From NCBI GenBank assembly GCA_016282215.1, contig JAEEKC010000111.1, forward strand, positions 1 to 39,773: DNA of 39,773 bases. The letters are read 5' to 3'. Position numbers and translations under genes: made by a program. The stretch's first letter is position 1, and each line of letters opens with the position of its first letter. Of this stretch, positions 1,702 to 38,791 are shown one piece after another. Under the pieces are notes generated by a model. That model made no database searches, was not told where the DNA came from, and saw only the letters and a program-made list of their open reading frames with translations. The DNA is from Lachnospiraceae bacterium. GTDB taxonomy: Bacteria > Bacillota > Clostridia > Lachnospirales > Lachnospiraceae.

Positions 1702-4700
1702 TTATTTGATTTTTCCCGTCTTCGGGAAGCCCTTCTTGAACAGAAAAGCTTTATAGGTGATCTTCTTCCCCGAAGGAGCTTTGAAAACTGCCTTTGCGGC
1801 GATACCCGTAAAAGCCTTTGCGCCAACCTTTTTCTTTGTCAGCTTCTTGCTTTTGCAGGTGATGGTCTTTAGTTTCCCGCAGCCGTAGAATGCCTGGGAC
1901 CCGATGGATTTTATGGTTTTGGGGATCACCACGCTCTTAAGTTTCGTTCTGTTTTTGCAGGCCTTAGCCACAATTCCCGTCACCTCATATTTCACACCGC
2001 CGATGGTAACACTGGCCGGGATCTTGAGCGTCTTTGTTTTCTTCGGAACGGATTTCAGCGACACCTTCGGACTTTTCACACTGGCGCTTGTTACCTTATA
2101 GGAATAGCCGGTCTTCTTATCCTTGATGGTCTTGCCCTTAGCTGCCGGCTTTTTCCCGGTCATGGGGATCACCTGCCCTTTTTTCAGCACGGCTCCGCAT
2201 CCTTCGCAGACCTCATCGCCGGTATAACCGTCTTTGGTGGCAGTTGCCTGCGCGGCTCCTGTGATCTTTGTCTTACCTGTGTGATGGTTTGGATCCTTCG
2301 GGATCTGAATATCTGCGGTTGTGACCGCCTTGCTGCCGCCTGCGTCTGCGAACAGTTTTCCGCAGGTTGCGCATACATAATGCTCCTTTTGTCCTGTTTG
2401 TACGCAGGTTGCGGCTACGGCCTCTTTCTTCACCAGTTTATGAAGATGCTTCTCAACTTTGAACCCGTCTGCCTTGCTTTCAAGCACCTGTTCGATATTC
2501 ATCTGATCGCCGCGAACCACCAGCGTTGCCTCCACACTGTCTTCCTTCTGTCCGGGAAGCACGCCTTCAAACACCTTGTCTTTTTTGCCGGATTCTTTCT
2601 TTATAAGAGTGATCTTATCACCGCCGTGGCCGAGGAAATGTACATCTCCGTCTTCTTCCAAAACAACCTTTGCGGTTTCCTTATCCTCTACATTCAGTTT
2701 GCCGCTGACGGAATCGCCGTTGGACATCATCACTAAAAGCCTGTCATTATCCAGTGTGGCCACCGCAAGGGTACCCGATCCGGACCGGCCACTCTTTTTG
2801 ATCGTCTGCAGGCTGTCTGCAGGCACAATGATCACGGATCTGCCGTCATTTGTCTTATCCGTTTTTTTCTGTCCGAAGGTGTAGTTCGTGCTTTTCGCAG
2901 CAAAAACCTCTTCTTCCCTGCCTTCGGCTGCATTCACCTCATCCCCTGTTACCGTTGCAAGAGGTTTTACGGTACCGTCATCTGCTGACGTGGTTACCGT
3001 ATAGTTATCCTGATTTACCAGCATAGTTCTCATACGGAATCTCATACGGAAACGCATACGGAAGCGCATACGGAATCTCATGCGGAAACGCATACGGAAT
3101 CTCATGCGGAAGCGCATACGGAACCTCATGCGGAAGCGCATACGGAAGCGCATACGGAACCTCATGCGGAAGCGCATACGGAAGCGCATACGGAAGCGCA
3201 TGCGGAAGCGCATACGGAAACGCATACGGAAACGCATACGGAAGCGCATACGGAAACGCATACGATAACTCATCAGGGACTTCGCACGATAATTCATATA
3301 GCGCTTCATACGATACTTCATAAAGAATCGCATACGGGCCTGCATCAGGCCGACCTCTCCCGACTGAAGATCTGCCGGATCCTTCGCTATGATCGTGGCG
3401 TATTCCGTCTCATCTTCTTCGTTCCAGGTATACGGATTACTGCCGTCGCCTACGCCGACCGCCCGATACATCGCCTCATCGGCATCGGTCCAGGCATAGG
3501 AATCATCATCTTTTGCGGCGCATCCATATGTTTGAAACAGCTGCTCATCCGCATCCGACCATTCCATCTCATCATCGTAGATTCCCGCAGCGCCAAATGA
3601 CTGAAACAGTTTTTCATCCTCTGCTGTCCAGTCATAGGCGGTATCGTCCACAGCGGCAGATCCATATGTGCCAAGCAGTTTTTCATCCGCATCACTCCAT
3701 TCCGATTGACTGTTATCATCCTTTGCGGCAGTGCCGTAAGTCTGATACCAGGTCTCATCCTGGTCTGTCCAGTCGTAGGTTGTATCACCTTTTTCTGCGC
3801 AGCCGAAGTCCTCGTACAGTTTTTCATCCTCTGCCGTCCATTCATAGCCGGTATCGTCTTTACTGGCAACGTCAAAGTCCTGATAGAGTTTTTCGTCGGT
3901 ATCGGTCCACTCATAACTCTTGTCATCCGCTTTTGCCACTCCGTAGGTTTGCAACAGCGTTTCGTCTTCAGCGTTCCAGGTATAGGAATCGTCCGTGGCG
4001 CAGCCATATTCCTGATACCATGCTTCTTCCTGCTCCGTCCATGGATCTTCTTTCAATTCCTCTTCGGAGACAGCACCGCCATCATCACCGCCAAGGCTCT
4101 GATACAGCGCTTCTTCCTCTTCGGTCCACGGATCCTTTTCATACAATTCCTGATCCATCACCGTCCATACCCAGTTAAAATAGGCCTCCTCATCTTCTGC
4201 GGTCCATACGGTTTCATCCTCGTCGGGAATGATCCAGTCCGCATCCTGATAAAGCCCCTTATCCATATAAACTGCTGAATACAGGTCGTAAGGGATAAAG
4301 GCCAGTTCGCACTCCTGCATATCTTCTTCGGAAACATCTCCCATAGTGCCCCAGTGTGGTCCCTGAATCTCTTCCGAGCCCAGGTCATAATACCAGTCTG
4401 ACACCTCACCGTCACCCACGTTATGCAGCAAGACCTTTCTTTCCTCGCCGGGCCAGTTACTGTCATAGACCTTGATATAGGCATAATCCCCTTCAAATCC
4501 CGCTTCATAAGCAAGGACCGCATGGCCGCCTTCCGGTCCGAATAGTCCTAAAATAACAGGATTTTTCTCATGCATGACGGTATCAAAGGCCGTCTGTACA
4601 TCCGAATTCAACAGAAAGGCCAGCTGCACCCTGACATCATACTGGGAAAGATGCATTTCTTCAATAAACTTTTTCAGGGCATCGCCGCTCTCATCCGGAT

Positions 4701-6777
4701 CCCCTGCTCCGGCCAGGTGTGCGGAAGCCGGATCCTTTGCCGTTTTGTCATAATCCGAAATATTGAAGCCGTTTTTATCATTATAAAACATGCCGCTGCT
4801 GGCAGAAAGGCCATAGCAGCTTCCGTTCCACTCTTCATCATAGAAATAATGCATGAAATCGCCTTTGTCTCCGAACACAGACTTAAAACGCGCAGCGGGA
4901 ATATGATACCCCTGGCTGTACTGCATGCCGGAATAGGAATTGATAAAGGGATAGGAATAATCTCCGATCAGAAGTTTTTTGGTAAACAAACCCGGCTTCC
5001 CATCGGATTTTTTTCTGTCTATGCCAAAAAGCTGATAATCCTTCAATCCACCTTCTTTACGGACCGACCCTTCCCCCCCGGTCAAAGGACCATCCTCCGT
5101 AAAAATCACCAGGTCATCATCCGGTTCTCCGTGATAAGCAAATCCATCCCTTGCATAGACCGTAGTCAGATTCCCGCAGGCATAAAACATAGCCGTCACT
5201 TCTTTTAAAATCGGCGTTTCAAAAGAAGAAAGATCTATGGAATACAGATAATTACAAAAGCCGAACATACCATTCATATACTCTACGCTGCGTGTATCAA
5301 AATTCATGTGATCGATATGGTACAGATTGGTACATCCGTAGAACATTCTCTTCATATTCACAGCAGAAGAAGTATCCACGCCTTCAAAGTCTATGGACCG
5401 AAGTGCAGTGCACTCTTCAAAGAGACTTTCCATAATCTGTGTCTGCGAAAAATCAGCATAGGACAGATCCACATCTTCAAGAGTGGTACAACCCATAAAC
5501 AAGCCCGTGGCATCCTCTGCGATCTTCAAGCCTTTCCCTAAGATCACTCCCCTGACCTTGGGTTTTACAAGCTCTTTCGAATCCGCTTCGTCCGGGTCCA
5601 TGATCCGCTTTAAAATAACGCGGTACTCCTCGCCTTCCACCTCCATAACGGAAGGAATATAAAAAAAATACGTCTCGCTGGCCAGATCCGAGAATTTTCC
5701 GGGATAAAAAGCGTCTAATGTTACGGTATGATCTTCTTCATTTAGTGACGTATGAAAATAACTTGCATCCGTAACAATGATATTGTCATACAGGGAAGAA
5801 AACAGTCCCGGAGCATCTATCGAATCCACCACTGCATAGGCAATTCCTTCCCTGCCTTTTCCGTCGCACTTTGTTCCATATTCACCGGCTAAGCTGCTGC
5901 AGCCCAAAAACATCTGGGCGCCGGGATCTTCTCCGTTAATCTTCTCCGTGGCATTTTTATAGATTTCGATATATTCATCCCCATGTCCGCCGGTGCCGGA
6001 GGCATAGATCCTTCGCAGATTCTCACATCCCGCAAACATACGGCGAAGATCCGTGGCACTGACTGCCTCACCTGCCATCTGAAGTTTTAAGATTTCTAAA
6101 GACGAACAGTTCATAAACATTTCGGAAAGATTCTTGATATTCGTCATCGAACATTCCACGCAGAACTTAAGGTCCTTTAAATTTCTGCAGTCTTTGAACA
6201 TGCCGGAAAGATCCGTTACGCTTTTATGGGGCTGGGTCTGAGCGATATCGATCGTTTCGACATTATAACAATAGCTGAAAATTCCGGGACCTCCAAGCGG
6301 AATGCCTTCAACAGAAATCGATGTCAGGGCATCAACGGGAGAGGTTCCGTCAGCCTTTCCGTCTTTTCTTTCCACGCCGCCAAGCCCTTCAAGGATCGTC
6401 GGATAGTCTACGTTGCCGATCCTAAATGTGTCCGGAATCGTGATCGACGCAGGCGCCGGTCCTTCTTCGGGACCTTTATATTTTTTCAGCACACAGTAAG
6501 TATTCGTCACCGGCTCTGTGGGAATTATAGTATCATCCAATTCCCTAAGCTCATAATCCCAATAGGCAAGGGGCGTTTCCGTCGGATCGCCCATGGGCGC
6601 GGTTTGTGCGCTGATCTCTTCCTGCGCTGTTTCGCCGGCTGAAAAGTTCTCTGAAACCTCTTCTGCTGCCGGCGTTTTTTCGGGCGTATATGCAGCAAGG
6701 GGCTCGATCACGCTCCCCATTGTCAGAACACTTGCCAGCGTTGCTGCCAGAATTCTCAATGTTATTTTTCTTTTCAT
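1702..6777 (-). CDS. Secreted giant surface protein (1691 aa): signal peptide, two BspA/DUF285-type LRR blocks, papain-like Cys-peptidase-like domain, acidic repeats, (MRFR)19, Cys-rich CxxC module, C-terminal LRR_5-like repeats
   Basis: The N-terminus MKRKITLRILAATLASVLTMGSVIEPLAAY resembles a Sec signal. Repeated MF..C..L..L/..F.T..V..M..MF units (e.g. MKRMFYGCTNLYHIDHMNFDTRSVEYMNGMFGFCNYLYSIDLSSF) are typical of DUF285/BspA LRR proteins. The C-terminus (IPASVTIGGVKYEVTGIVAKACKNRTKLKSVVIPKTIKSIGSQAFYGCGKLKTI) is LRR_5-like. ATG at 6777 has a GGAGGAG RBS 5 nt upstream. No LPXTG motif is seen. Confidence 0.85.
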   Translation of the reverse strand: MKRKITLRILAATLASVLTMGSVIEPLAAYTPEKTPAAEEVSENFSAGETAQEEISAQTAPMGDPTETPLAYWDYELRELDDTIIPTEPVTNTYCVLKKYKGPEEGPAPASITIPDTFRIGNVDYPTILEGLGGVERKDGKADGTSPVDALTSISVEGIPLGGPGIFSYCYNVETIDIAQTQPHKSVTDLSGMFKDCRNLKDLKFCVECSMTNIKNLSEMFMNCSSLEILKLQMAGEAVSATDLRRMFAGCENLRRIYASGTGGHGDEYIEIYKNATEKINGEDPGAQMFLGCSSLAGEYGTKCDGKGREGIAYAVVDSIDAPGLFSSLYDNIIVTDASYFHTSLNEEDHTVTLDAFYPGKFSDLASETYFFYIPSVMEVEGEEYRVILKRIMDPDEADSKELVKPKVRGVILGKGLKIAEDATGLFMGCTTLEDVDLSYADFSQTQIMESLFEECTALRSIDFEGVDTSSAVNMKRMFYGCTNLYHIDHMNFDTRSVEYMNGMFGFCNYLYSIDLSSFETPILKEVTAMFYACGNLTTVYARDGFAYHGEPDDDLVIFTEDGPLTGGEGSVRKEGGLKDYQLFGIDRKKSDGKPGLFTKKLLIGDYSYPFINSYSGMQYSQGYHIPAARFKSVFGDKGDFMHYFYDEEWNGSCYGLSASSGMFYNDKNGFNISDYDKTAKDPASAHLAGAGDPDESGDALKKFIEEMHLSQYDVRVQLAFLLNSDVQTAFDTVMHEKNPVILGLFGPEGGHAVLAYEAGFEGDYAYIKVYDSNWPGEERKVLLHNVGDGEVSDWYYDLGSEEIQGPHWGTMGDVSEEDMQECELAFIPYDLYSAVYMDKGLYQDADWIIPDEDETVWTAEDEEAYFNWVWTVMDQELYEKDPWTEEEEALYQSLGGDDGGAVSEEELKEDPWTEQEEAWYQEYGCATDDSYTWNAEDETLLQTYGVAKADDKSYEWTDTDEKLYQDFDVASKDDTGYEWTAEDEKLYEDFGCAEKGDTTYDWTDQDETWYQTYGTAAKDDNSQSEWSDADEKLLGTYGSAAVDDTAYDWTAEDEKLFQSFGAAGIYDDEMEWSDADEQLFQTYGCAAKDDDSYAWTDADEAMYRAVGVGDGSNPYTWNEEDETEYATIIAKDPADLQSGEVGLMQARMRFFMKYRMKRYMNYRAKSLMSYRMRFRMRFRMRFRMRFRMRFRMRFRMRFRMRFRMRFRMRFRMRFRMRFRMRFRMRFRMRFRMRFRMRFRMRFRMRFRMRTMLVNQDNYTVTTSADDGTVKPLATVTGDEVNAAEGREEEVFAAKSTNYTFGQKKTDKTNDGRSVIIVPADSLQTIKKSGRSGSGTLAVATLDNDRLLVMMSNGDSVSGKLNVEDKETAKVVLEEDGDVHFLGHGGDKITLIKKESGKKDKVFEGVLPGQKEDSVEATLVVRGDQMNIEQVLESKADGFKVEKHLHKLVKKEAVAATCVQTGQKEHYVCATCGKLFADAGGSKAVTTADIQIPKDPNHHTGKTKITGAAQATATKDGYTGDEVCEGCGAVLKKGQVIPMTGKKPAAKGKTIKDKKTGYSYKVTSASVKSPKVSLKSVPKKTKTLKIPASVTIGGVKYEVTGIVAKACKNRTKLKSVVIPKTIKSIGSQAFYGCGKLKTITCKSKKLTKKKVGAKAFTGIAAKAVFKAPSGKKITYKAFLFKKGFPKTGKIK
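3031..3258 (-). repeat. 19 tandem 12-bp units (plus strand CAT[A/G]CGGAA[TCT/ACG/GCG/CCT]) encoding (MRFR)19
   Basis: Counted unit by unit on the sequence: six nucleotide variants, all translating to Met-Arg-Phe-Arg. Degenerate period-4 Met units extend to 3345 (MQAR MRFF MKYR MKRY MNYR AKSL MSYR). Confidence 0.95.
3376..4206 (-). repeat. About 12 tandem acidic 20-29-aa coding repeats (consensus Y-[ED]-W-T-[AD]-[ED]-D-E-K-L-[YF]-Q-x-[YF]-G-x-A-x-K-D-D-x-x)
   Basis: The translation reads YEWTDTDEKLYQDFDVASKDDTG / YEWTAEDEKLYEDFGCAEKGDTT / YDWTDQDETWYQTYGTAAKDDNSQS / EWSDADEKLLGTYGSAAVDDTA and so on. The periodicity also creates the long spurious plus-strand ORFs 3513..4178 and 3706..4278. Confidence 0.85.
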
Positions 6778-6957: not shown

Positions 6958-9915
6958 TCACTTTTTCCCCATTTTTTTATTCTGCTCATTTTGCAGATTC
7001 TTTCTCTGCTCCGGCTGGCCTATTTTCAGTTCTTTGTTTCTCTTTAATTCCTTTCCCAGGCCTCTGAACACCTTGTCTGAAAGGCTGCCGTCAGAGAGTT
7101 TCGGTCCTAACTGTTCGTTGAGTTCGGCGTAAGATTTTCCCTCCAACTCGCCTGATTTTTTCAGATGATCTGTCACCGCATCCTGCAAATTCTTATAGTC
7201 TCCTTCGCCGTTTTTGACAATGGCTTTTCGCATCTTCACTGAATGCTCGCCTGATAAAATCTGCAGGGTTACGATCTCTCCCAGCTTTTCATAACCCGCA
7301 TCAAGAGCCTGTTGGTCCGGAACCTGATCATGGCTGAATACCTTTTCGTTTCTGATATCTATATCCAGATCGTTCTTTGTATCCTCTTCGAAAATGGCAT
7401 TTGTCACCCGGCCTTCGAGTCCCATAAAGGGTACGGCATCCCCCATGCTCATGTCTTCAAGCTGCTTTTTGAACTTTGTTTTTAATTTGATCGCCTTATC
7501 CTTCAGTCTGAGCTTTTCCATGTAAACTTTTTCATAGGCCTCAAATCCTTCTTTCGGGTTCTGCAAAGAAATCACTTTTTCCCTGAATTGCCTGTCCTTT
7601 GCAATACGCTTTATTTCCTTTTCATAATTCTTATTAAACTTTTCCTTCTGCATGCCGGCAAGCATACGCTCCCCTTTGTCGGAGGTGAGAATTCCATCGA
7701 TTGATGTATTGTAAGACCATTTCAAAAAGTCCGCGGCCCGATCCCAGTTTTTCGGCAGTGAATCACCCGAGAGGATGCCATCATCCCATGTTGCGGCCGC
7801 GCCTGCGTTATTCGCCGCCTTTCGAACAAGCCTGCGCATTTGCGTGCGCTGATCAGCCACTTTGGCATGCTCATCTTTGATCTGCCGAGCCTGCGCATTT
7901 GCGTGAAGATTGCCAAAGCTGACATTCACTTCTTTTGCTTCCTTCTCGGTCTGCGCGCTGATCTCAGTCAGGCTCTTTCTTTCCTCGGCGCTTCCCGTAA
8001 ACTCCGGTCCGAGTGTGCCTCGTTTTTCATACACCTCCATGGTCTCTAGGAAACGCTCCGTCTTGTCCATGGCCTTCTGCGAAGTCTCGAGACGCTTTTT
8101 CCCGTTCCCGAAAACCGCCTTGTAAAAGACGTTTCTGGTCTTTTCGTACTGGGCGGCTGCCGTCTTGTATTCTCTCAGAGCCTGTTGCAGCTGCCTGAAA
8201 TCGCCTGTCTTTTCCTGTCCGCCACTAAGATCTGTCAGGGCGATCACCTTGTTCAGCGCCCTTGTCATATTCCTGTAGTATTCAGAACCCTCTTCCTTTG
8301 TAGCCTTTTTTCCCGGCTGATCAAAATTGGCATTTTTATCCTTCTGCGTGCTTATCAGCGCCTCTCTGTCCGCTACAAGTTTCCGGTGCATATCACCGAT
8401 CTCCTGCAAAAGGGCGATCTTATTGTTCACCTTTGAGATCTGCTTCCATTTCTCCCGCATCACCTCATCGGCCTGTTTCTCCGGCTGCTGTATCCCGGGC
8501 TGCTCATTTACGATCTCCCTGTTTTCTTTTTGCTGCTGCGGTGCGATCTGCTCTTCTTTAATTTCTTCTTTAATTTCTTCTTTCTGCTGTTCCTTTTGCT
8601 CTTCTTTAATCTCTTCTTTCTGCTCTTCTTTCTGCTCCTCCGGAATCACCATACCGACAGCCTGATCCTCCTTCGGACCATCGGGCGCTGCGGCCTGCTG
8701 CTCATTAACCGGATCATCCTGTTCTTTCTGATCCGCCTCATTTTCCAGTTCATCCTGCGCTTTTTTTTCTGCGTTTTCCCGCGCTTCCTGTGTGAGTTCC
8801 TCTTCGCATTTGGCAAGCGCATCCATGACCGGCGGATCTTCTGCATTGATAAACGCATCGAGTTCCTTACTCAGATCGGATGCTTTTCCTTTTTTCAAAA
8901 ACGCAAACGTCTTTTCCGGATCTTTCAGGATCCCCTCCTGCTTGATGGCCGCAGTACCCATCCCTTCCGTCACCTTGCAAACGGGCAGCATCTGGTCGCC
9001 GACCTGCTGCTGCGATGTTTCTATCTTAACGGACCCGAATATATGCATATTGTTTTCGAGACGCTCAGCGGCGTCTGAAATAGTTTTGCCATTGATCCTG
9101 TTTGAATCCATGCCATTGATGGCATAACGTACCTGGGCGACATCATCAAGATTATGGATCGTCAGCGTTTTTTCCTGCCTGTTTTCCGTCAGGACCAGAT
9201 TTTCATATCCGGCCTGCAAATGGGCCGTCACCGCAAAAGCATTGTTCGCCAGTTCTTCGCAGTTTTTCAGTTCTTCCTGCGAAACGGACTTTTCAAGAAA
9301 CCTTCTCGAATCTTCTGCATATACTTCCGCTCCGCCATGAGGGATTCCCAGAACAACTGTTTGCTCCATGCCGGTATAACATGTCTGCAGAATATTACCG
9401 ATCAGCAGTGACTGCCCTGCATAGTCTTCCATCTGCTTCGGATCGGAATAATCGATATTCGGCATCGTATATTCGGCAAGTTTATCCACCGTTGCCTTAT
9501 AAAGATTCGGCCAGATCATGAGTTTTTCCGGACTTGCTGCTACCGTGTTTCCGTCGCTGTCGAGTTCCTGAACCGCAGTTTCTCTGATAAAGTCATTAAA
9601 CTCTTCGACAGCATCCGTCAATTTCTCATGATCATTCGTGATATGATAGGCCTCATCCACCGACATGCCCTTTTCCGCGATCAGCCATATATAGAACTCT
9701 TCATAGTTCTCGCCATAAAACTCAAATGTATTTTGGCTGGCAGCCGCAAAATTACGGGGCTGAAATCTGGTCAGCAGGTTCACTTTTGCTTTTTCAAAAA
9801 TACCGAATCCGATCCCCAAATCATCTGCAATGTTTTCTGTCGGAATGGTAACGGATACATCCGTCGCCGGATCGATCAGGATCTGCTCTTCATTGATATT
9901 CTCAACTTCTTTCAT
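6958..9915 (-). CDS. 985-aa K/E-rich protein of unknown function (no signal peptide or TM segment seen)
   Basis: Uninterrupted 985-codon ORF. ATG at 9915 has a GGGAGA RBS 5 nt upstream. There is a central EEQKEEQKEEIKEEQKEQQKEEIKEEIKEEQ tract and a basic C-terminal tail. I recognise no domain. Confidence 0.7.
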   Translation of the reverse strand: MKEVENINEEQILIDPATDVSVTIPTENIADDLGIGFGIFEKAKVNLLTRFQPRNFAAASQNTFEFYGENYEEFYIWLIAEKGMSVDEAYHITNDHEKLTDAVEEFNDFIRETAVQELDSDGNTVAASPEKLMIWPNLYKATVDKLAEYTMPNIDYSDPKQMEDYAGQSLLIGNILQTCYTGMEQTVVLGIPHGGAEVYAEDSRRFLEKSVSQEELKNCEELANNAFAVTAHLQAGYENLVLTENRQEKTLTIHNLDDVAQVRYAINGMDSNRINGKTISDAAERLENNMHIFGSVKIETSQQQVGDQMLPVCKVTEGMGTAAIKQEGILKDPEKTFAFLKKGKASDLSKELDAFINAEDPPVMDALAKCEEELTQEARENAEKKAQDELENEADQKEQDDPVNEQQAAAPDGPKEDQAVGMVIPEEQKEEQKEEIKEEQKEQQKEEIKEEIKEEQIAPQQQKENREIVNEQPGIQQPEKQADEVMREKWKQISKVNNKIALLQEIGDMHRKLVADREALISTQKDKNANFDQPGKKATKEEGSEYYRNMTRALNKVIALTDLSGGQEKTGDFRQLQQALREYKTAAAQYEKTRNVFYKAVFGNGKKRLETSQKAMDKTERFLETMEVYEKRGTLGPEFTGSAEERKSLTEISAQTEKEAKEVNVSFGNLHANAQARQIKDEHAKVADQRTQMRRLVRKAANNAGAAATWDDGILSGDSLPKNWDRAADFLKWSYNTSIDGILTSDKGERMLAGMQKEKFNKNYEKEIKRIAKDRQFREKVISLQNPKEGFEAYEKVYMEKLRLKDKAIKLKTKFKKQLEDMSMGDAVPFMGLEGRVTNAIFEEDTKNDLDIDIRNEKVFSHDQVPDQQALDAGYEKLGEIVTLQILSGEHSVKMRKAIVKNGEGDYKNLQDAVTDHLKKSGELEGKSYAELNEQLGPKLSDGSLSDKVFRGLGKELKRNKELKIGQPEQRKNLQNEQNKKMGKK
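8549..8640 (-). repeat. Low-complexity coding repeat (E-E-[QI]-K units) inside the 985-aa ORF
   Basis: The plus strand shows iterated ctcttctttaat(t/c)tcttctttctg units, which translate on the minus strand to EEQKEEIKEEQKE... Confidence 0.8.
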
Positions 9916-10038: not shown

Positions 10039-12303
10039 TCAGAGTTTTTCAAAATCCTCTAAGGGCATGGGCTTTGCAAAATGATATCCCTGGAACAGTT
10101 TGCACCCCATGTCAGCCAGCATCCTGTACTGTTCTTCCAATTCCACGCCCTCGGTCAGCGCCGTAATGCCCAGTTCCTGGGACATTTTAATGATGTGCTG
10201 CAAAATGATGGAGGTTCTCTCATCATCTTTGGCATTTTGCAGGAACATCATATCGATCTTCAATACATCGATGGGCATGTCCTTGAGCATATTGAAGGAA
10301 GAATAACCGCTGCCGAAATCATCCATTTCCACGATAAATCCCGCCTGCCTGAACTGCTCCAAAACATCGATCCTGCGGGCTGCATCGGACATCATAACGG
10401 ATTCCGTGATCTCGATCCTGAGTTTCTTCGGTTCCACCCGGTATTCTTCTACCAGGTTTTTGATCTCATCAACCACATCCATGAAGTAAAAATCCCTGGG
10501 TGAGATATTGACGGAAATAAACTGCCCCCTGCCCTCTGTTTTCCACTTTGCCAGGGTTTCGCAGGCACAGCGCCACATATGCAGATCCACCTGTGCGATC
10601 ATGCCGTTTTTCTCAAGAACGGGAAGAAAGAGGCTCGGGGATAAAAGTCCTTTTTCCGGGTGGATCCAGCGCACAAGCGCCTCTGCTCCCACGATCTTTC
10701 CAGTGCCATCCACAATGGCCTGGAAATACGGCAGGATCTGTCCTTCCCGAAGGGCCCTTGTCAGTTCAGCCGAGATCTGCTGGCTGAAGAGGGCTTTTTT
10801 GCGCATTTCGTCATTATACCAGGCAATATGCACCTGATACTCTTCCTTGACCGTGGAAAAAGCAATCCTGGCGCGGTCAAACATCACGGATACATCGATC
10901 CCCGTTTCCACCGCCCGGTACACGCCGATATGGATCAAAATGCTATGCGTGTTTTCTCCGTCTTCCACTTCAAAATCCGAAAGGATCTGTTCCATGTAAC
11001 CTGTATCAAACTCCACTGCCGGCATGCAGACGCCGAAGGTATCGCCCACCAGCCTGCCTGCCACGCCATGCTGTGACAGCCCTTTGCCGATCCGGTCGGC
11101 AATACTGCAAAGCACCCGGTCCCCGAAGGCCATGCCGTAGACTTCATTGATCATCTTAAACTCGCTGATGTCGGAATAAATGATCAGATATTCCGTATCG
11201 GGATGGGTATCCATGAGTTTTTTTGTCTGCTCATAGAGATATTCCCTGTTATACAGGCCTGTCAACTGGTCATGGGTTGCATTGTAGCGTTCCCTCTGCA
11301 GTTCCAGCTCCTGCTTTGTATAATCCTCCGCACTGATAAAGCAGCCCACCGTCCGCTGGTGGTCATCGATCACGGCATGCTTTTCCAGCACGAAATACCG
11401 TGTCTGGTCCTCGCCGTCTTTGATCTCCTTTTTCCGCGACCATTCACTGCCGTGCAGATCGATCGCACCGAAAGTTTCTTCCAGATAGGCTGCGGCCATG
11501 GCAAAATTCTCATCTTTAATATCCGCCAGTTTGATCCCGGAATCATTTGCCCAGATGCACTGCCCGGTCACATCAAAAAAGAACAGGCTCTCCTGCATAT
11601 CCGCTGCCAGGTTTGCCAGCATGCTGTCCAAAAGCCGCATGGGCCTGTAGTGAAGGGAAAAATAAAAAGCCAGAATCCCGAAGGCACCGAAGCCGATCAT
11701 GGACCGGTCAACCGGTGTACCCGAAGCAATATAGAAAGTCTCCCAGAGACCGACTGCAGACATGGAGATAAAGATCACGGAAAACCGTTCGGAATAGATC
11801 TTGGGAGAGTGCATGGTCTTGATGAAAAATACCATCAAGATAAACAGAAAGATGCCGTAGTCCAGCATCCTGTGAAAGGCCTGTCCGTTATAGGCCACGA
11901 GTTTAAAATAGATCTCATCATCGACCAGGATCTCTTCTGTCGAAAAGGCCTGACCGAAGAATGGGTTTAGTGCATACTGCACCACATCAGCGATCAGCAG
12001 CAGATAGACACCGATCTGCAGCAGTTTGTTTTTCCAGGTGATACCGCAATACTGCATGGTAAAATACAGCAGCGCAAAGATCACCGCATCCATACCGAGG
12101 AAATACACATAATAACCGACCGTCGCCGTCATTCTGTCCACGGAACTGATGATGATCAGGTTTCCGAGCACCGGCGGGATCAGCATTGCCAGCAAAAAAG
12201 TGACAGCCTTCCGGATCGGTTTCCGGCTGCTTGCCGCCATCACCGCGCAGATACCGCAGGCCACAGCCATGACTGCGAAGATCAATGAATATTGTGCTCT
12301 CAT
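10039..12303 (-). CDS. Membrane-anchored c-di-GMP phosphodiesterase: multi-TM N-terminus, degenerate GGDEF, intact EAL
   Basis: EAL-domain motifs are all present: EALVRW, ISVNISPRDF, EITES, DDFGSGYSS, KIDMMF, EGVE, QGYHFAKP. The GGDEF signature reads RLVGDTFGV (VGDTF instead of GG[DE]EF). The N-terminal ~220 aa are hydrophobic helices. I prefer the ATG at 12303 (AGGTGG 5 nt upstream) over the GTG at 12312. Confidence 0.9.
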   Translation of the reverse strand: MRAQYSLIFAVMAVACGICAVMAASSRKPIRKAVTFLLAMLIPPVLGNLIIISSVDRMTATVGYYVYFLGMDAVIFALLYFTMQYCGITWKNKLLQIGVYLLLIADVVQYALNPFFGQAFSTEEILVDDEIYFKLVAYNGQAFHRMLDYGIFLFILMVFFIKTMHSPKIYSERFSVIFISMSAVGLWETFYIASGTPVDRSMIGFGAFGILAFYFSLHYRPMRLLDSMLANLAADMQESLFFFDVTGQCIWANDSGIKLADIKDENFAMAAAYLEETFGAIDLHGSEWSRKKEIKDGEDQTRYFVLEKHAVIDDHQRTVGCFISAEDYTKQELELQRERYNATHDQLTGLYNREYLYEQTKKLMDTHPDTEYLIIYSDISEFKMINEVYGMAFGDRVLCSIADRIGKGLSQHGVAGRLVGDTFGVCMPAVEFDTGYMEQILSDFEVEDGENTHSILIHIGVYRAVETGIDVSVMFDRARIAFSTVKEEYQVHIAWYNDEMRKKALFSQQISAELTRALREGQILPYFQAIVDGTGKIVGAEALVRWIHPEKGLLSPSLFLPVLEKNGMIAQVDLHMWRCACETLAKWKTEGRGQFISVNISPRDFYFMDVVDEIKNLVEEYRVEPKKLRIEITESVMMSDAARRIDVLEQFRQAGFIVEMDDFGSGYSSFNMLKDMPIDVLKIDMMFLQNAKDDERTSIILQHIIKMSQELGITALTEGVELEEQYRMLADMGCKLFQGYHFAKPMPLEDFEKL

Positions 12304-12312
12304 ATTCCCCAC

Positions 12313-29716: not shown

Positions 29717-30742
29717 TTACGGATACAAATACGGCCGCAGCAGAGAATTCTCTCCATCCGGATATACTGCATCCTGTGCGGTATTCCGTACCTCTTTCAT
29801 CAAAGCCACATTGTGCATGGAGATCTCGAAGATCAGCCCGAAAATGTGTGCGCTAAAGATCATATCATCCAGATCGAAACTGCCTTTTTCATAAAACCGC
29901 GTCAGGCAGATCAGCTCTAAGAGATGAACGCTTCTGAAAACGGAGATCAGCGGTCCGTCGATATGTCCGTCCTGAATGGTATCGAGAAGTTGCCTGTGTG
30001 CAAAATAAGCCGCTGTCTTGCGCAGCCATTTTTTTGCCTCGGGGACTTTTTCATAAAACTCTGCGCGTATTTTTCCTGCCTGCGGCAAAATGGAACGCAG
30101 GGTGACAAACAGCTGCTGCGAAACGTCATGTCCTTCAAAATACAAAGCATCATCGAGGAGTTTTTCCATCTCCTTCGGCGATTCATAGCATCCGAAAAGA
30201 CTGTCATCAAAACTGCCGGCAACCAGCGCTTTCATCAGTCCGTCCCGGAATGCTAACAACCGCTCGGTCCTGACTCTTAATTCCTCGGAAACTTCAATAT
30301 CCGCCTCTTCCTCGGTGCGGATAAATACCGGAGCATCTCCCGGAGATGTATAGAGAAGCCTTGCCACCTCACTACAGGCGATCAGGATCCTGTCCTGCCT
30401 GTAATGTCCGGCCATAACCTCCTGCTCCCGCGGATAAATATCACAGATCTTGATCTGGGCTTTTTCACCGTCATGAAGCCTGACAGAACAAAGCGTATCC
30501 TCTGTCAGAAACGGACAGCGACCGTTGTCTTTCAGGCGGATAAACCAGTCACCGTTTTCTTCCTGAAAAATATTCTCCCGCAGATAATCACCAAACTCAC
30601 CCTCGTAGTTTAAATAAAACTCCGCAGTCTCCGGATCCATGGGCAGTACCCAGGCATAACAGCACACGTCGATACAGGTCGTGTTACCCGTACAGGTAAA
30701 ACTGTCATAATAATCCGGTCGCTCCCGTATGATCTTTGTCAT
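29717..30742 (-). CDS. FliB-like Cys-cluster protein (flagellin lysine-N-methylase family / YkgJ-type)
   Basis: The N-terminus PDYYDSFTCTGNTTCIDVCCYAWVLPMDPETAEFY fits the F.C.G..C.D.CC..W.I..D signature of FliB-type proteins, plus DNGRCPFL...LC. The start overlaps the BMP gene's stop (ATGA). Confidence 0.55.
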   Translation of the reverse strand: MTKIIRERPDYYDSFTCTGNTTCIDVCCYAWVLPMDPETAEFYLNYEGEFGDYLRENIFQEENGDWFIRLKDNGRCPFLTEDTLCSVRLHDGEKAQIKICDIYPREQEVMAGHYRQDRILIACSEVARLLYTSPGDAPVFIRTEEEADIEVSEELRVRTERLLAFRDGLMKALVAGSFDDSLFGCYESPKEMEKLLDDALYFEGHDVSQQLFVTLRSILPQAGKIRAEFYEKVPEAKKWLRKTAAYFAHRQLLDTIQDGHIDGPLISVFRSVHLLELICLTRFYEKGSFDLDDMIFSAHIFGLIFEISMHNVALMKEVRNTAQDAVYPDGENSLLRPYLYP

Positions 30743-37198: not shown

Positions 37199-38791
37199 TT
37201 ATTTTTTCTTGTGACAGCACTCCGGTAATGAAGCCGACCAGGGAAGGAGTTCTTCGCAGAAACGTCGATCTGTATCTTCCATGTGGTTCGGTATTACCGT
37301 AAGAACGTGCTTAATGTATTCGTACACATTCAGGTTGTTTGCTTTTGCTGTTTCAACTAGACTGTATATGATGGAACTGGCCTTGGCTCCGGATATCGTA
37401 TCGATCATGACAAAGTTTTTCTTTCCGATACAGAATCCACGAATAGCCCGCTCGGCACAGTTATTATCAAGCGGTACATCGGGATCATCCAGGAACACCC
37501 TAAGGTATTTTTCCTGGCTTAGTGAATAGGCAATTCCTTTCGCGGTCTTGTTCTTTGCAGATGTACGGTGTTCGTTTTTATGACACCACGCAAAGTAGGC
37601 CTCAACAAGAGGTTTGACCGTAAGCTGTCGCTTAAGCAGACGTTCTTCCGGTGGAAGGCCCTTCAGGGCGTTGTCCGCATTATATATTGCCTGTATCATG
37701 GCCAGGGCTTTGTATGCGAGGCTTCCTTTTTGAGCTCCCTTCGCCATTGCTTTCAGGGCTTCGTCATATCGTCGCCTTGCGTGCGCATAGCAGCCGGCTA
37801 TCTTTAGATCCTCGCGTTCTTTTTCAAGCTTGTGATAGACTTGATAGCCATCTGTTACACATACCCCGGAGAAATTCCTGAGGAACTCTCTCGGGTGAGA
37901 CGCGTTCCGCGTCTTTTGGTACTCATACAGGACAATCGGGTGTTCGTGATTCATTCCGGTCCGGTACACCCACATATAACTTTTGGATCCGGCCGGCCGG
38001 TCATCCTTGTTTACCAGCACCGGTGTTTCGTCTGCCTGCAGTACATGGTAATCATACATCTTTTCATGCAGGTAGTCATACAGGATTGACAAATACCTTT
38101 CGGCGCTTGCTATGGTCCACCTGGCCATTTCCTGCCTTGTGATATCAAGGCCATCGGACTCGAACTGTTTCTCGATCCGATAGAACGGAACGGCATTTAC
38201 ATACTTGGCATTTATGATGCCTGCTTCCAGCGAAGGAGAGACAAGACTGTTTCTCATAAGGTATGCCGGAAATTTCGCTTTTACCATGCGTTCACTCTTT
38301 TTGCCGGAGTAGACGCCGACATGTATCTCTTCAAGGCCCACCTTGGCGGGTACGAAATAATAACGTTTTATCACTTCGTCAGGAAGTGTTTTATATCCTT
38401 CATCACCAAACTCGTCATTCAGTTCTTCCTCTGACATGTAGTACTTAGTGGTTTCAACTACTTCGAGTTTGGACAGATCGGCTTCTTTCTTTCCCTGGGG
38501 CCGTTTGGCTTTCAAAGGTGCGGGGGCTTCTTTGGCTTCCTCGTCCTTTACAGCCTCAGCCTCGTTGAAGAATGCGATGTTTTCATCATTCTCAAAGAAT
38601 GAGATTTGGCCATCAATCTCGAAGGATTCGGAAGAGCGCCCAAACCGGTGGCGTTTTGCATCAACGACTTCTTCCATGAACTTTTGGAGTTTGTCATCAA
38701 GCTTTTTGTATTCTTCCTGCTGGGAAAGAATGATGTTGACCAGATCAGCGTGATCGAGTTTATTCAATTGCTCAGCGGATAAATGTTTCAT
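37199..38791 (-). CDS. tnpC: IS66-family transposase
   Basis: LQADETPVLV...SYMWVYRTG...VLYEYQKTR...FSGVCVTDGYQVY...AGCYAHARRRY is the characteristic IS66 DDE core. The protein is 530 aa. Confidence 0.93.
   Translation of the reverse strand: MKHLSAEQLNKLDHADLVNIILSQQEEYKKLDDKLQKFMEEVVDAKRHRFGRSSESFEIDGQISFFENDENIAFFNEAEAVKDEEAKEAPAPLKAKRPQGKKEADLSKLEVVETTKYYMSEEELNDEFGDEGYKTLPDEVIKRYYFVPAKVGLEEIHVGVYSGKKSERMVKAKFPAYLMRNSLVSPSLEAGIINAKYVNAVPFYRIEKQFESDGLDITRQEMARWTIASAERYLSILYDYLHEKMYDYHVLQADETPVLVNKDDRPAGSKSYMWVYRTGMNHEHPIVLYEYQKTRNASHPREFLRNFSGVCVTDGYQVYHKLEKEREDLKIAGCYAHARRRYDEALKAMAKGAQKGSLAYKALAMIQAIYNADNALKGLPPEERLLKRQLTVKPLVEAYFAWCHKNEHRTSAKNKTAKGIAYSLSQEKYLRVFLDDPDVPLDNNCAERAIRGFCIGKKNFVMIDTISGAKASSIIYSLVETAKANNLNVYEYIKHVLTVIPNHMEDTDRRFCEELLPWSASLPECCHKKK

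Follow-up and report, generated by a model that had tools for sequence, protein, structure and literature searches.

Short tandem peptide repeats are common as spacers in Gram-positive surface proteins, and in bacterial surface proteins generally they are usually treated as inert. The staphylococcal Clf and Sdr proteins carry an "R region" of Ser-Asp (SD) repeats, which is anionic and glycosylated and is located just before the LPXTG sortase anchor. Here, we analyzed a stretch of 39,773 nucleotides from a Lachnospiraceae bacterium (contig JAEEKC010000111.1; this whole stretch is referred to as the window), whose largest gene (1702..6777, minus strand) encodes a 1691-residue, putatively secreted surface protein of the BspA family, with leucine-rich repeats (LRRs) and PARCEL repeats. 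This protein contains a perfect tract of 19 Met-Arg-Phe-Arg (MRFR) units. The SD region is regarded as a physical stalk, and the (MRFR)19 tract could be one as well. Like the SD region, the tract is composed of very short units present in tens of copies inside a Gram-positive surface protein, and its DNA is degenerate, with synonymous variation and length polymorphism among strains. In contrast to the SD repeats, the unit is a cationic tetrapeptide in which aliphatic and aromatic residues alternate, and the tract is coupled to an arm of opposite charge and inserted between two globular domains. The protein ends in KKGFPKTGKIK, with no LPXTG motif and no membrane segment following, and about 440 residues lie after the tract.

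Strict alternation of charged and hydrophobic residues is also the principle of designed peptides such as (RW)n, (KL)n, MAX1, and EAK16/RADA16 (from yeast zuotin), where it gives amphipathic beta-strands that need charge neutralization to assemble. The tract shares this alternation with them, but whereas the designed peptides are synthetic or very short, it has a four-residue Met/Phe alternation, a natural length of 76 residues, and an attached counter-charged arm. A third likeness is found in the precursors of defensins and frog antimicrobial peptides, where the charges of the anionic propiece and the cationic peptide are correlated ("net charge balance"), the correlations being weak, with r of about −0.3 to −0.4 (PMC7073735). 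In those precursors, as in the protein described here, the acidic segment lies immediately N-terminal to the cationic one and the charges are correlated across members. The precursors are, however, small, eukaryotic, and nonrepetitive, with defined processing sites, whereas the two arms described here are tandem repeats within a giant bacterial surface protein, and their charges are correlated with an r of 0.98. The charge balance is the feature held in common, and a small precursor with a C-terminal peptide and a processing site is not what is found here.

The perfect array spans residues 1173 to 1248 (3034..3261, minus strand). On the same strand, it is preceded by seven degenerate period-4 cationic units (MQAR, MRFF, MKYR, MKRY, MNYR, AKSL, and MSYR; 3262..3345) and followed by a last unit, MRTM (3022..3033), which runs into the next domain and its conserved beginning, "M-L-V-x-x-x-N-Y-T-V". 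An earlier reading made by a model from the letters alone (here called the sequence-only reading) had described 19 uninterrupted units at about these residues, in six DNA variants with no nonsynonymous difference, within a span of 3022 to 3345. Translation and a tally of the units bear out each of these points, and the span corresponds to exactly 27 period-4 units. Arginine makes up 38 of the 76 residues of the array. The first Arg of the unit is encoded by CGT, CGC, AGA, or AGG and the second by CGT or CGC only, while the Met (ATG) and Phe (TTC) codons are constant across all 19 units. Tandem Repeats Finder reported a 12-nucleotide array of 19.5 copies with 85% matches, and a degenerate three-unit DNA pattern matched 17 times in the window and not once in 100 shuffles.

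The six DNA variants require at least five mutational events. Random point mutations in MRFR codons are synonymous in 18.7% of cases, and the probability that all of the changes would be synonymous is 2.3e-4 for the window array alone. Moreover, the remaining five reading frames of the array DNA give four to six distinct tetrapeptides, compared with one in the MRFR frame. A function in another frame or at the RNA level was rejected because the invariance is confined to the MRFR frame.

To look for the tract elsewhere, a protein search with the tract and its flanks was of limited use: it returned relatives of the zinc-ribbon-like modules of the C-terminal half only (proteins P0001 to P0004), the tract being missed because the HMMER composition correction masks it. 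Public genomes and metagenomes were scanned with degenerate DNA patterns instead. Arrays with conserved flanks were found in four paralogous genes of the water-buffalo rumen Lachnospiraceae metagenome-assembled genome (MAG) RGIG7926, with 17 units in L001, 9 in L002, 20 in L007, and at least 14 in L012. They were also found in MAG Tb.RUG.8 (L011, 11 units) and on further rumen contigs (L023, 17 units; L028, 5; L033, 11; and L013, 11). These genes define an MRFR clade in rumen Lachnospiraceae, in which paralogues and orthologues carry 5 to 20 units. Taken together, the window array and nine related arrays contain 134 MRFR units, which occur as 26 DNA variants and one peptide. In L001 alone, 13 DNA variants are present among 17 units, and the mean pairwise difference between units reaches 2.8 nucleotides per 12-nucleotide unit.

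Close relatives have a syntenic orthologue of the window gene in three independent assemblies (L045, L046, and L047), where the N-terminal 1030 residues are 93% identical to the window protein. These orthologues carry 17, 17, and 15 units, respectively, with codon series unlike that of the window. One MKFR unit (AAG) in a strain-level orthologue is the sole nonsynonymous change seen, and it is conservative. The selection on the peptide that the sequence-only reading proposed is upheld by these comparisons: across the 134 units no amino acid change accompanies the 26 DNA variants, and within the MRFR clade the tract is neither absent nor freely substituted. Judging from the assemblies, the array is real, its DNA evolves fast, and it is polymorphic in length with its peptide frozen. 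The copy number (15, 17, and 19 units among strains or assemblies) is less certain than the array itself.

Some apparent variants of the array are products of assembly or annotation. An array of three units at L008/L024 was considered as a three-unit allele and rejected. The end of the L013 contig and the start of the L024/L008 contig come from the same metagenome, have identical flanks, and both lie inside an MRFR array; the copy number of the L013/L024 gene is undefined because the assembler broke within the repeat. The apparent truncation of the L046 orthologue (1360 residues) is an annotation artifact due to a run of N in the scaffold (L046:15020-15030). Other DNA matches were set aside as outside the family, being short open reading frames (ORFs) or simple repeats without the flanks (L003 to L006, L009, L010, L014 to L021, L025 to L027, L029 to L032, and L034 to L039, including giant-virus contigs). 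In this set, the IMG/VR giant-virus contigs L030, L038, and L039, together with L034/L037 and L014, contain (MRFR)5-11 readings without the family flanks, and one giant-virus MAG contig reads "IRMRIRMRFRMRFR...". These strings are probably unrelated microsatellite-like repeats.

In more distant relatives, the tract position is occupied by other period-4 units. P0011 has about 6 LKYR/MKYR units, P0012 about 28 units of the form (L/M)(R/K)YR, and P0017 about 8 WRCK/LNWR units, while L052 has 8 FRVR units and L053 has 9 LRCR units plus several short (LRCR)2 segments. Each of 28 P0012 units ends in Arg, with Leu or Met at position 1, Arg or Lys at position 2, and Tyr at position 3. Cysteine takes the "aromatic" position in the LRCR units of L053 and the WRCK units of P0017. 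Purity is again observed at the level of the peptide, given that (FRVR)8 is encoded by seven DNA variants and (LRCR)9 by eight, in both cases with no amino acid change. The seven degenerate units of the window (MKYR and others) resemble the units of these distant relatives, MKYR being of the main type of P0011. This indicates that selection acts on a pattern, which as read from these sequences is aliphatic, basic, aromatic or Cys, and Arg, and on the purity of the unit within each array. The idea of selection on the MRFR peptide, as first put forward, is thereby modified: the purity of the unit is kept, but MRFR itself is not conserved across relatives.

Two features of the L052 and L053 contigs (those of P0014 and P0013, respectively) were observed alongside. 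In L053 (L053:3900-4750), four to five rounds of a (LRCR)2 segment and an acidic segment of about 40 residues come ahead of the terminal (LRCR)9; the arrangement is interleaved and not one of two blocks, and it suggests a modular relationship between acidic and cationic segments. In both contigs, an apparent frameshift lies just upstream of the cationic tracts (L052:6900-7400 and L053:3850-4050), so that gene callers stop in the acidic arm and restart in or after the tract. Errors in the scaffolds, pseudogenes, or slippage-prone phase variation could each account for these frameshifts.

Immediately upstream of the tract, the window protein contains an acidic arm of 311 residues (3346..4278, minus strand), composed of Trp repeats of about 23 residues with the pattern Y-x-W-T-x-x-D-E-x-L-Y/F. 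Its net charge is −76 and it contains 17 Trp residues. A Pfam search of the acidic arm gave no match, and no Pfam or NCBIfam model covers either the arm or the tract, in agreement with the statement of the sequence-only reading that the tract resembles no described domain. The string MRFRMRFR was not found in the literature text searched. No solved structure describes the module formed by tract and arm, and a PDB sequence search of the flanking domains was without significant match.

The net charges of the two arms were compared in 15 proteins. The acidic and cationic arms carry −76 and +48 in the window, −53 and +36 in L045, −54 and +32 in L047, −59 and +41 in L001, −66 and +40 in L023, −33 and +21 in L002, −65 and +47 in L007, −33 and +24 in L011, and −40 and +23 in L033. 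The corresponding values in the relatives with other units are −11 and +7 in P0011, −73 and +51 in P0012, −17 and +11 in P0017, −28 and +20 in L052, and −57 and +33 in L053. In these 14 proteins, the tract charge ranges from +7 to +51 and the ratio of acidic to cationic net charge stays between 1.38 and 1.74 (mean, 1.54; standard deviation, 0.13); the fifteenth, L028, has −62 and +15. The Pearson correlation between the arm charges is 0.98 (0.86 with L028), or 0.987 when one protein per lineage is used (n = 10), and none of 100,000 permutations gave an equally constant charge ratio.

The same relation is observed between near-identical strains. The arms of the window protein measure 311 residues (−76) and 108 residues (+48), and those of the L045 orthologue measure 218 residues (−53) and 76 residues (+36). 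The difference amounts to four acidic repeats (93 residues) and eight tract units (32 residues), and the charge ratios are 1.58 (window) and 1.47 (L045). The lengths of the two arms have changed in concert. A point beyond the sequence-only reading is that the tract is one half of a two-arm insertion, with a charge that rises and falls with the charge of the acidic arm. Given this scaling, a free polycation that anchors to the wall or binds DNA is less likely, and the functional roles listed in that reading are speculative.

The position of the two arms was established from the domains on either side. The acidic arm is preceded by a Cys/His domain of 240 residues (residues 601 to 841; 4255..4977, minus strand), delimited by alignments and AlphaFold2, and the tract is followed by a beta-rich domain (2449..3033, minus strand) delimited with a local hidden Markov model (HMM). 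A search of 1.84 billion representative proteins with the Cys/His domain gave 504 relatives (E ≤ 0.001), all of them large multidomain proteins, and the HMM of the beta domain was run against 157 proteins. Across 108 representatives, a median of 7 residues (interquartile range, 5 to 9) separates the end of the Cys/His domain from the start of the beta domain. Gaps of 85 to 475 residues are found only in the closest clade among these representatives, where they are filled by the acidic arm and then the cationic arm. This distribution indicates, on the alignments, that the acidic arm and the tract are an insertion into the linker of about seven residues that joins a conserved didomain. The Cys/His and beta didomain is widespread in large Firmicutes surface proteins (representatives P0011 to P0157), and Pfam has no model for either half of it.

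These observations are consistent with the (MRFR)19 tract working as a cationic arm that pairs with the acidic Trp-repeat arm just upstream, a reading to which we assign a probability of roughly 45%. Purifying selection keeps the period-4 unit of each lineage pure as a peptide, while replication slippage and recombination would alter the copy number and reshuffle synonymous codons. The arms may bind each other through Arg-carboxylate contacts and through contacts of Arg, Met, and Phe with Trp and Tyr. Such binding would account for the joint gain and loss of length in the two arms at a fixed ratio of about 1.5 acidic charges per basic charge. Within one molecule, the product could be a hairpin-like rod of a length tunable by repeat number, which would keep the flanking didomain together; between molecules, the arms could link surface proteins head to tail into a network on the cell surface. 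A more specific form of this proposal is more tentative still. It pictures a hitherto undescribed "polyelectrolyte zipper" of genetically tunable, covalently linked arms of opposite charge, which would bind in a fixed proportion of about two tetrapeptide units per acidic repeat and form either a rod, its length set by the number of repeats, or an intermolecular network making up the surface coat of rumen Lachnospiraceae. Slippage would change both arms, with selection for matching charges guiding their co-evolution.

Several observations weigh against the pairing of the arms. AlphaFold2 was uninformative on the insertion (acidic arm plus tract), with a mean predicted local distance difference test score (pLDDT) of 45 and a predicted template modeling score (pTM) of 0.21; the model, of low confidence throughout, shows a single long helix for the tract and short helices for the acidic repeats, and it gives no choice between a helix and the amphipathic beta-strand that the sequence-only reading proposed. 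L028 breaks the charge ratio (4.1), with 5 units beside a 333-residue acidic arm. This protein is a short-read metagenome orthologue of L007 (L028:1404-1438), in which a nearly equal acidic arm (334 residues) stands beside 20 units, and collapse of the array during short-read assembly may account for L028. Beside an acidic arm identical to that of L045, L047 carries two fewer units, and the coupling of the arms is therefore loose over short times. The ratio is about 1.5 and not 1, so that neutralization is nonstoichiometric. The proteins compared are related and the correlation takes no account of phylogeny, and the copy numbers come mostly from short-read metagenome assemblies.

The same data were weighed under other explanations. 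One, listed first among the roles in the sequence-only reading, is that the tract is a noncovalent wall anchor that binds teichoic acids or other anionic wall polymers, the acidic arm being a stalk repelled from the wall. The 38 Arg residues of the tract would suit this role, as would the very Lys-rich end of the protein past the tract, the acidic N-terminal part, and a putative signal peptide in a protein that has neither LPXTG nor a known wall-binding module. No Pfam or NCBIfam match to SLH, CW_binding_1/2, LysM, GW/SH3, or ChW was obtained, the whole protein showing LRR_5, DUF285, and PARCEL only, and searches of three subregions at E ≤ 10 gave no relevant wall-binding match. However, the insertion is missing from over 100 homologous didomain proteins and is hence not the anchor of the family, and wall polyanions would face competition from an adjacent acidic arm whose charge is opposite and about 1.5 times as large. 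The fixed charge ratio and the concerted change between strains are also left unexplained, and we regard wall anchoring as unlikely.

About as improbable is a masked cationic effector, in which the acidic segment would be a propiece that neutralizes a membrane-active or antimicrobial (MRFR)n peptide while it is made and exported, until its proteolytic release or unmasking, possibly by the neighboring papain-like domain or by rumen Arg-specific proteases. Synthetic peptides that alternate Arg with hydrophobic residues are known antimicrobials. A papain-like domain with invariant Cys, His, and Asp, probably active, lies directly upstream. Both the acidic-then-cationic order and the correlated charges have a parallel in the "net charge balance" of antimicrobial precursors (PMC7073735). 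Set against this, the tract is internal to 1691 residues, with about 440 residues of conserved domains after it, neither of its boundaries shows a conserved processing motif, and no immunity or export genes were seen near the window, L001, L002, or L023 loci. The insertion also interrupts a conserved didomain, an arrangement that favors a structural function. Two other peptide identities were tried and rejected: a ribosomally synthesized and posttranslationally modified peptide (RiPP) precursor with repeated cores, given that there are no modifying enzymes such as radical SAM proteins, cyclodehydratases, or lanthionine synthetases nearby and the host is a 1691-residue multidomain protein, and a mimic of FMRFamide/RFamide-like peptides (the tract contains R-M-R-F), given that there is no Gly after Phe for amidation, there are no dibasic processing sites, and the tract is internal.

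The two arms may instead be passive low-complexity linkers, expandable spacers with no specific partner, whose charge balance serves solubility or export and whose purity reflects recent expansion and weak selection. The labile copy number among strains, the variation of the unit between lineages, and the lack of a confident AlphaFold2 structure would all fit such a spacer. The absence of nonsynonymous change in 134 units that differ by up to 2.8 nucleotides per 12 is, however, a mark of strong selection, and a generic spacer could do without strict aliphatic/aromatic alternation and without a fixed Arg in the fourth position. With a coefficient of variation of 7%, the charge ratio is also more constant than solubility would require, and this explanation is as doubtful as the previous two. 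An artifact, in the form of a collapsed or chimeric repeat or an untranslated frame, is effectively refuted as far as the existence of the array is concerned: although repeats are hard to assemble, one gene is split inside its array (L013/L024), and apparent frameshifts lie upstream of the tracts in L052 and L053, the array sits within an uninterrupted ORF of 5 kb and is flanked on each side by conserved domains. Four independent assemblies contain the locus with its array, and there are 10 MRFR arrays overall, always in the MRFR frame, the only one that gives a single peptide.

The Cys/His domain that precedes the two arms has the invariant motifs W-G-x-C-x-G, G-H, and Y-D, the last extended to Y-D-S-N in the close clade. 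In domain numbering, an alignment of 22 diverse members shows no variation at C54, H152, or D172 and almost none at N174; C54 corresponds to residue 654 of the window protein. The Cys, His, Asn/Asp order of the clan CA peptidases is present and kept across the family. AlphaFold2 modeled the domain with a pLDDT of 94 and a pTM of 0.92, placing Cys54 at the start of a helix (54 to 65) and His152 at the start of a strand (150 to 162). The order of the residues and, in the model, the Cys at a helix N terminus and the His on a strand resemble clan CA peptidases of families C10, C47, C70, and C78. In contrast with those families, the domain has no significant Pfam, PDB sequence, or Foldseek match. 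Papain-like proteases are enriched among the weak Foldseek matches (all with E ≥ 0.14 and TM ≤ 0.27), the best of which include IdeS, cathepsin B, staphopain, and UfSP, and family members give weak Pfam matches to Peptidase_C78, C70, C10, and C39_2, below the cutoffs. Pfam, NCBIfam, and PDB sequence and profile searches returned nothing significant for the acidic arm or for the Cys/His and beta domains on either side of the insertion. The Cys/His domain is here called papain-like as a prediction from its model and motifs, its membership of the papain family being unproven.

The rest of the host protein is of a known type. Pfam LRR_5 (PF13306; 79.1 bits, cutoff 27.7), Pfam DUF285 (PF03382; 66.1 bits, cutoff 25), and the NCBIfam PARCEL model (TIGR02167; 46.6 bits, cutoff 30) all match it, and NCBI lists P0010, a partial orthologue, under the name [quoted passage not shown]. 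By these matches, the protein is a genuine member of the BspA/PARCEL (DUF285) surface proteins of Firmicutes and Mollicutes, whose family models leave the Cys/His domain, the acidic arm, and the tract uncovered. An exact-sequence lookup of the window protein found no record. All of its parts lie on the minus strand. A putative N-terminal signal peptide (about residues 1 to 29, MKRKITLRILAATLASVLTMGSVIEPLAA; 6691..6777) was read from the translation, with a basic N-region, a hydrophobic core, and an A-x-A motif, and relatives have similar N termini. The best Pfam stretch of the PARCEL/DUF285 leucine-rich repeats covers residues 424 to 537 (5167..5508; PF03382, E = 3.1e-18; also TIGR02167). The Lys-rich C-terminal BspA-type LRR_5 domain has its best stretch at residues 1602 to 1679 (1741..1974; PF13306). 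Within the family, the core order is conserved: variable PARCEL/DUF285 and LRR_5 repeats, the Cys/His domain, the acidic arm, and the cationic tract are followed by the beta-rich domain of about 200 residues, Cys-x-x-Cys modules or immunoglobulin-like domains, and a Lys-rich C terminus.

The Cys-x-x-Cys zinc-ribbon-like modules (ATCxxxG...C..CG; 2149..2415, minus strand) were the sole part of the C-terminal half that yielded database relatives in the search with the tract and its flanks. Each module has about 45 residues and two Cys-x-x-Cys pairs (...ATCTxxGYTGDxxCxxCG...), has no Pfam annotation, and recurs in otherwise unrelated Firmicutes surface proteins (P0001 to P0004).

The genes around the host gene in the window encode NusG, a 985-residue protein, a GGDEF-EAL protein, a rhomboid protein, and an FeFe-hydrogenase, and those around L001, L002, and L023 encode GGDEF-EAL, PAP2, TatD, CNNM, and HAD proteins. 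The 985-residue protein (6958..9915, minus strand) lies directly upstream of the MRFR gene and has no Pfam or NCBIfam match. It contains a Glu/Lys/Gln-rich repeat (EEQKEEQKEEIKEEQ...), with tandem repeats in the DNA at 8547 to 8641, and is syntenic and length polymorphic in L045 to L047 (985, 1005, and 981 residues). Genes for GGDEF-EAL proteins, which function in cyclic di-GMP turnover, are found at or near three MRFR-family loci (window 10039..12312, minus strand; L001:2645-4612; and L023:1075-2985), a proximity that could hint at coregulation of the MRFR surface proteins with cyclic di-GMP signaling. Farther away, the window encodes a homologue of the flagellin lysine-N-methylase FliB (29717..30742, minus strand; NF038110, 110.9 bits) and, near its end, an IS66-family transposase (37199..38791, minus strand).

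The (MRFR)19 tract is a real, strongly selected, and undescribed feature. It belongs with the known tandem peptide repeat regions of Gram-positive surface proteins, and the charge-matched two-arm module would be a new kind of element if the pairing is true. The papain-like and beta didomain that carries it, with about 500 representative clusters, is defined here as a widespread and uncharacterized component of Firmicutes surface proteins. If the arms pair, they would constitute a natural, length-programmable protein polyelectrolyte complex, which would be a new design principle for stalks or matrices, and would offer a ready system in which to follow the co-evolution of two repeat arrays.

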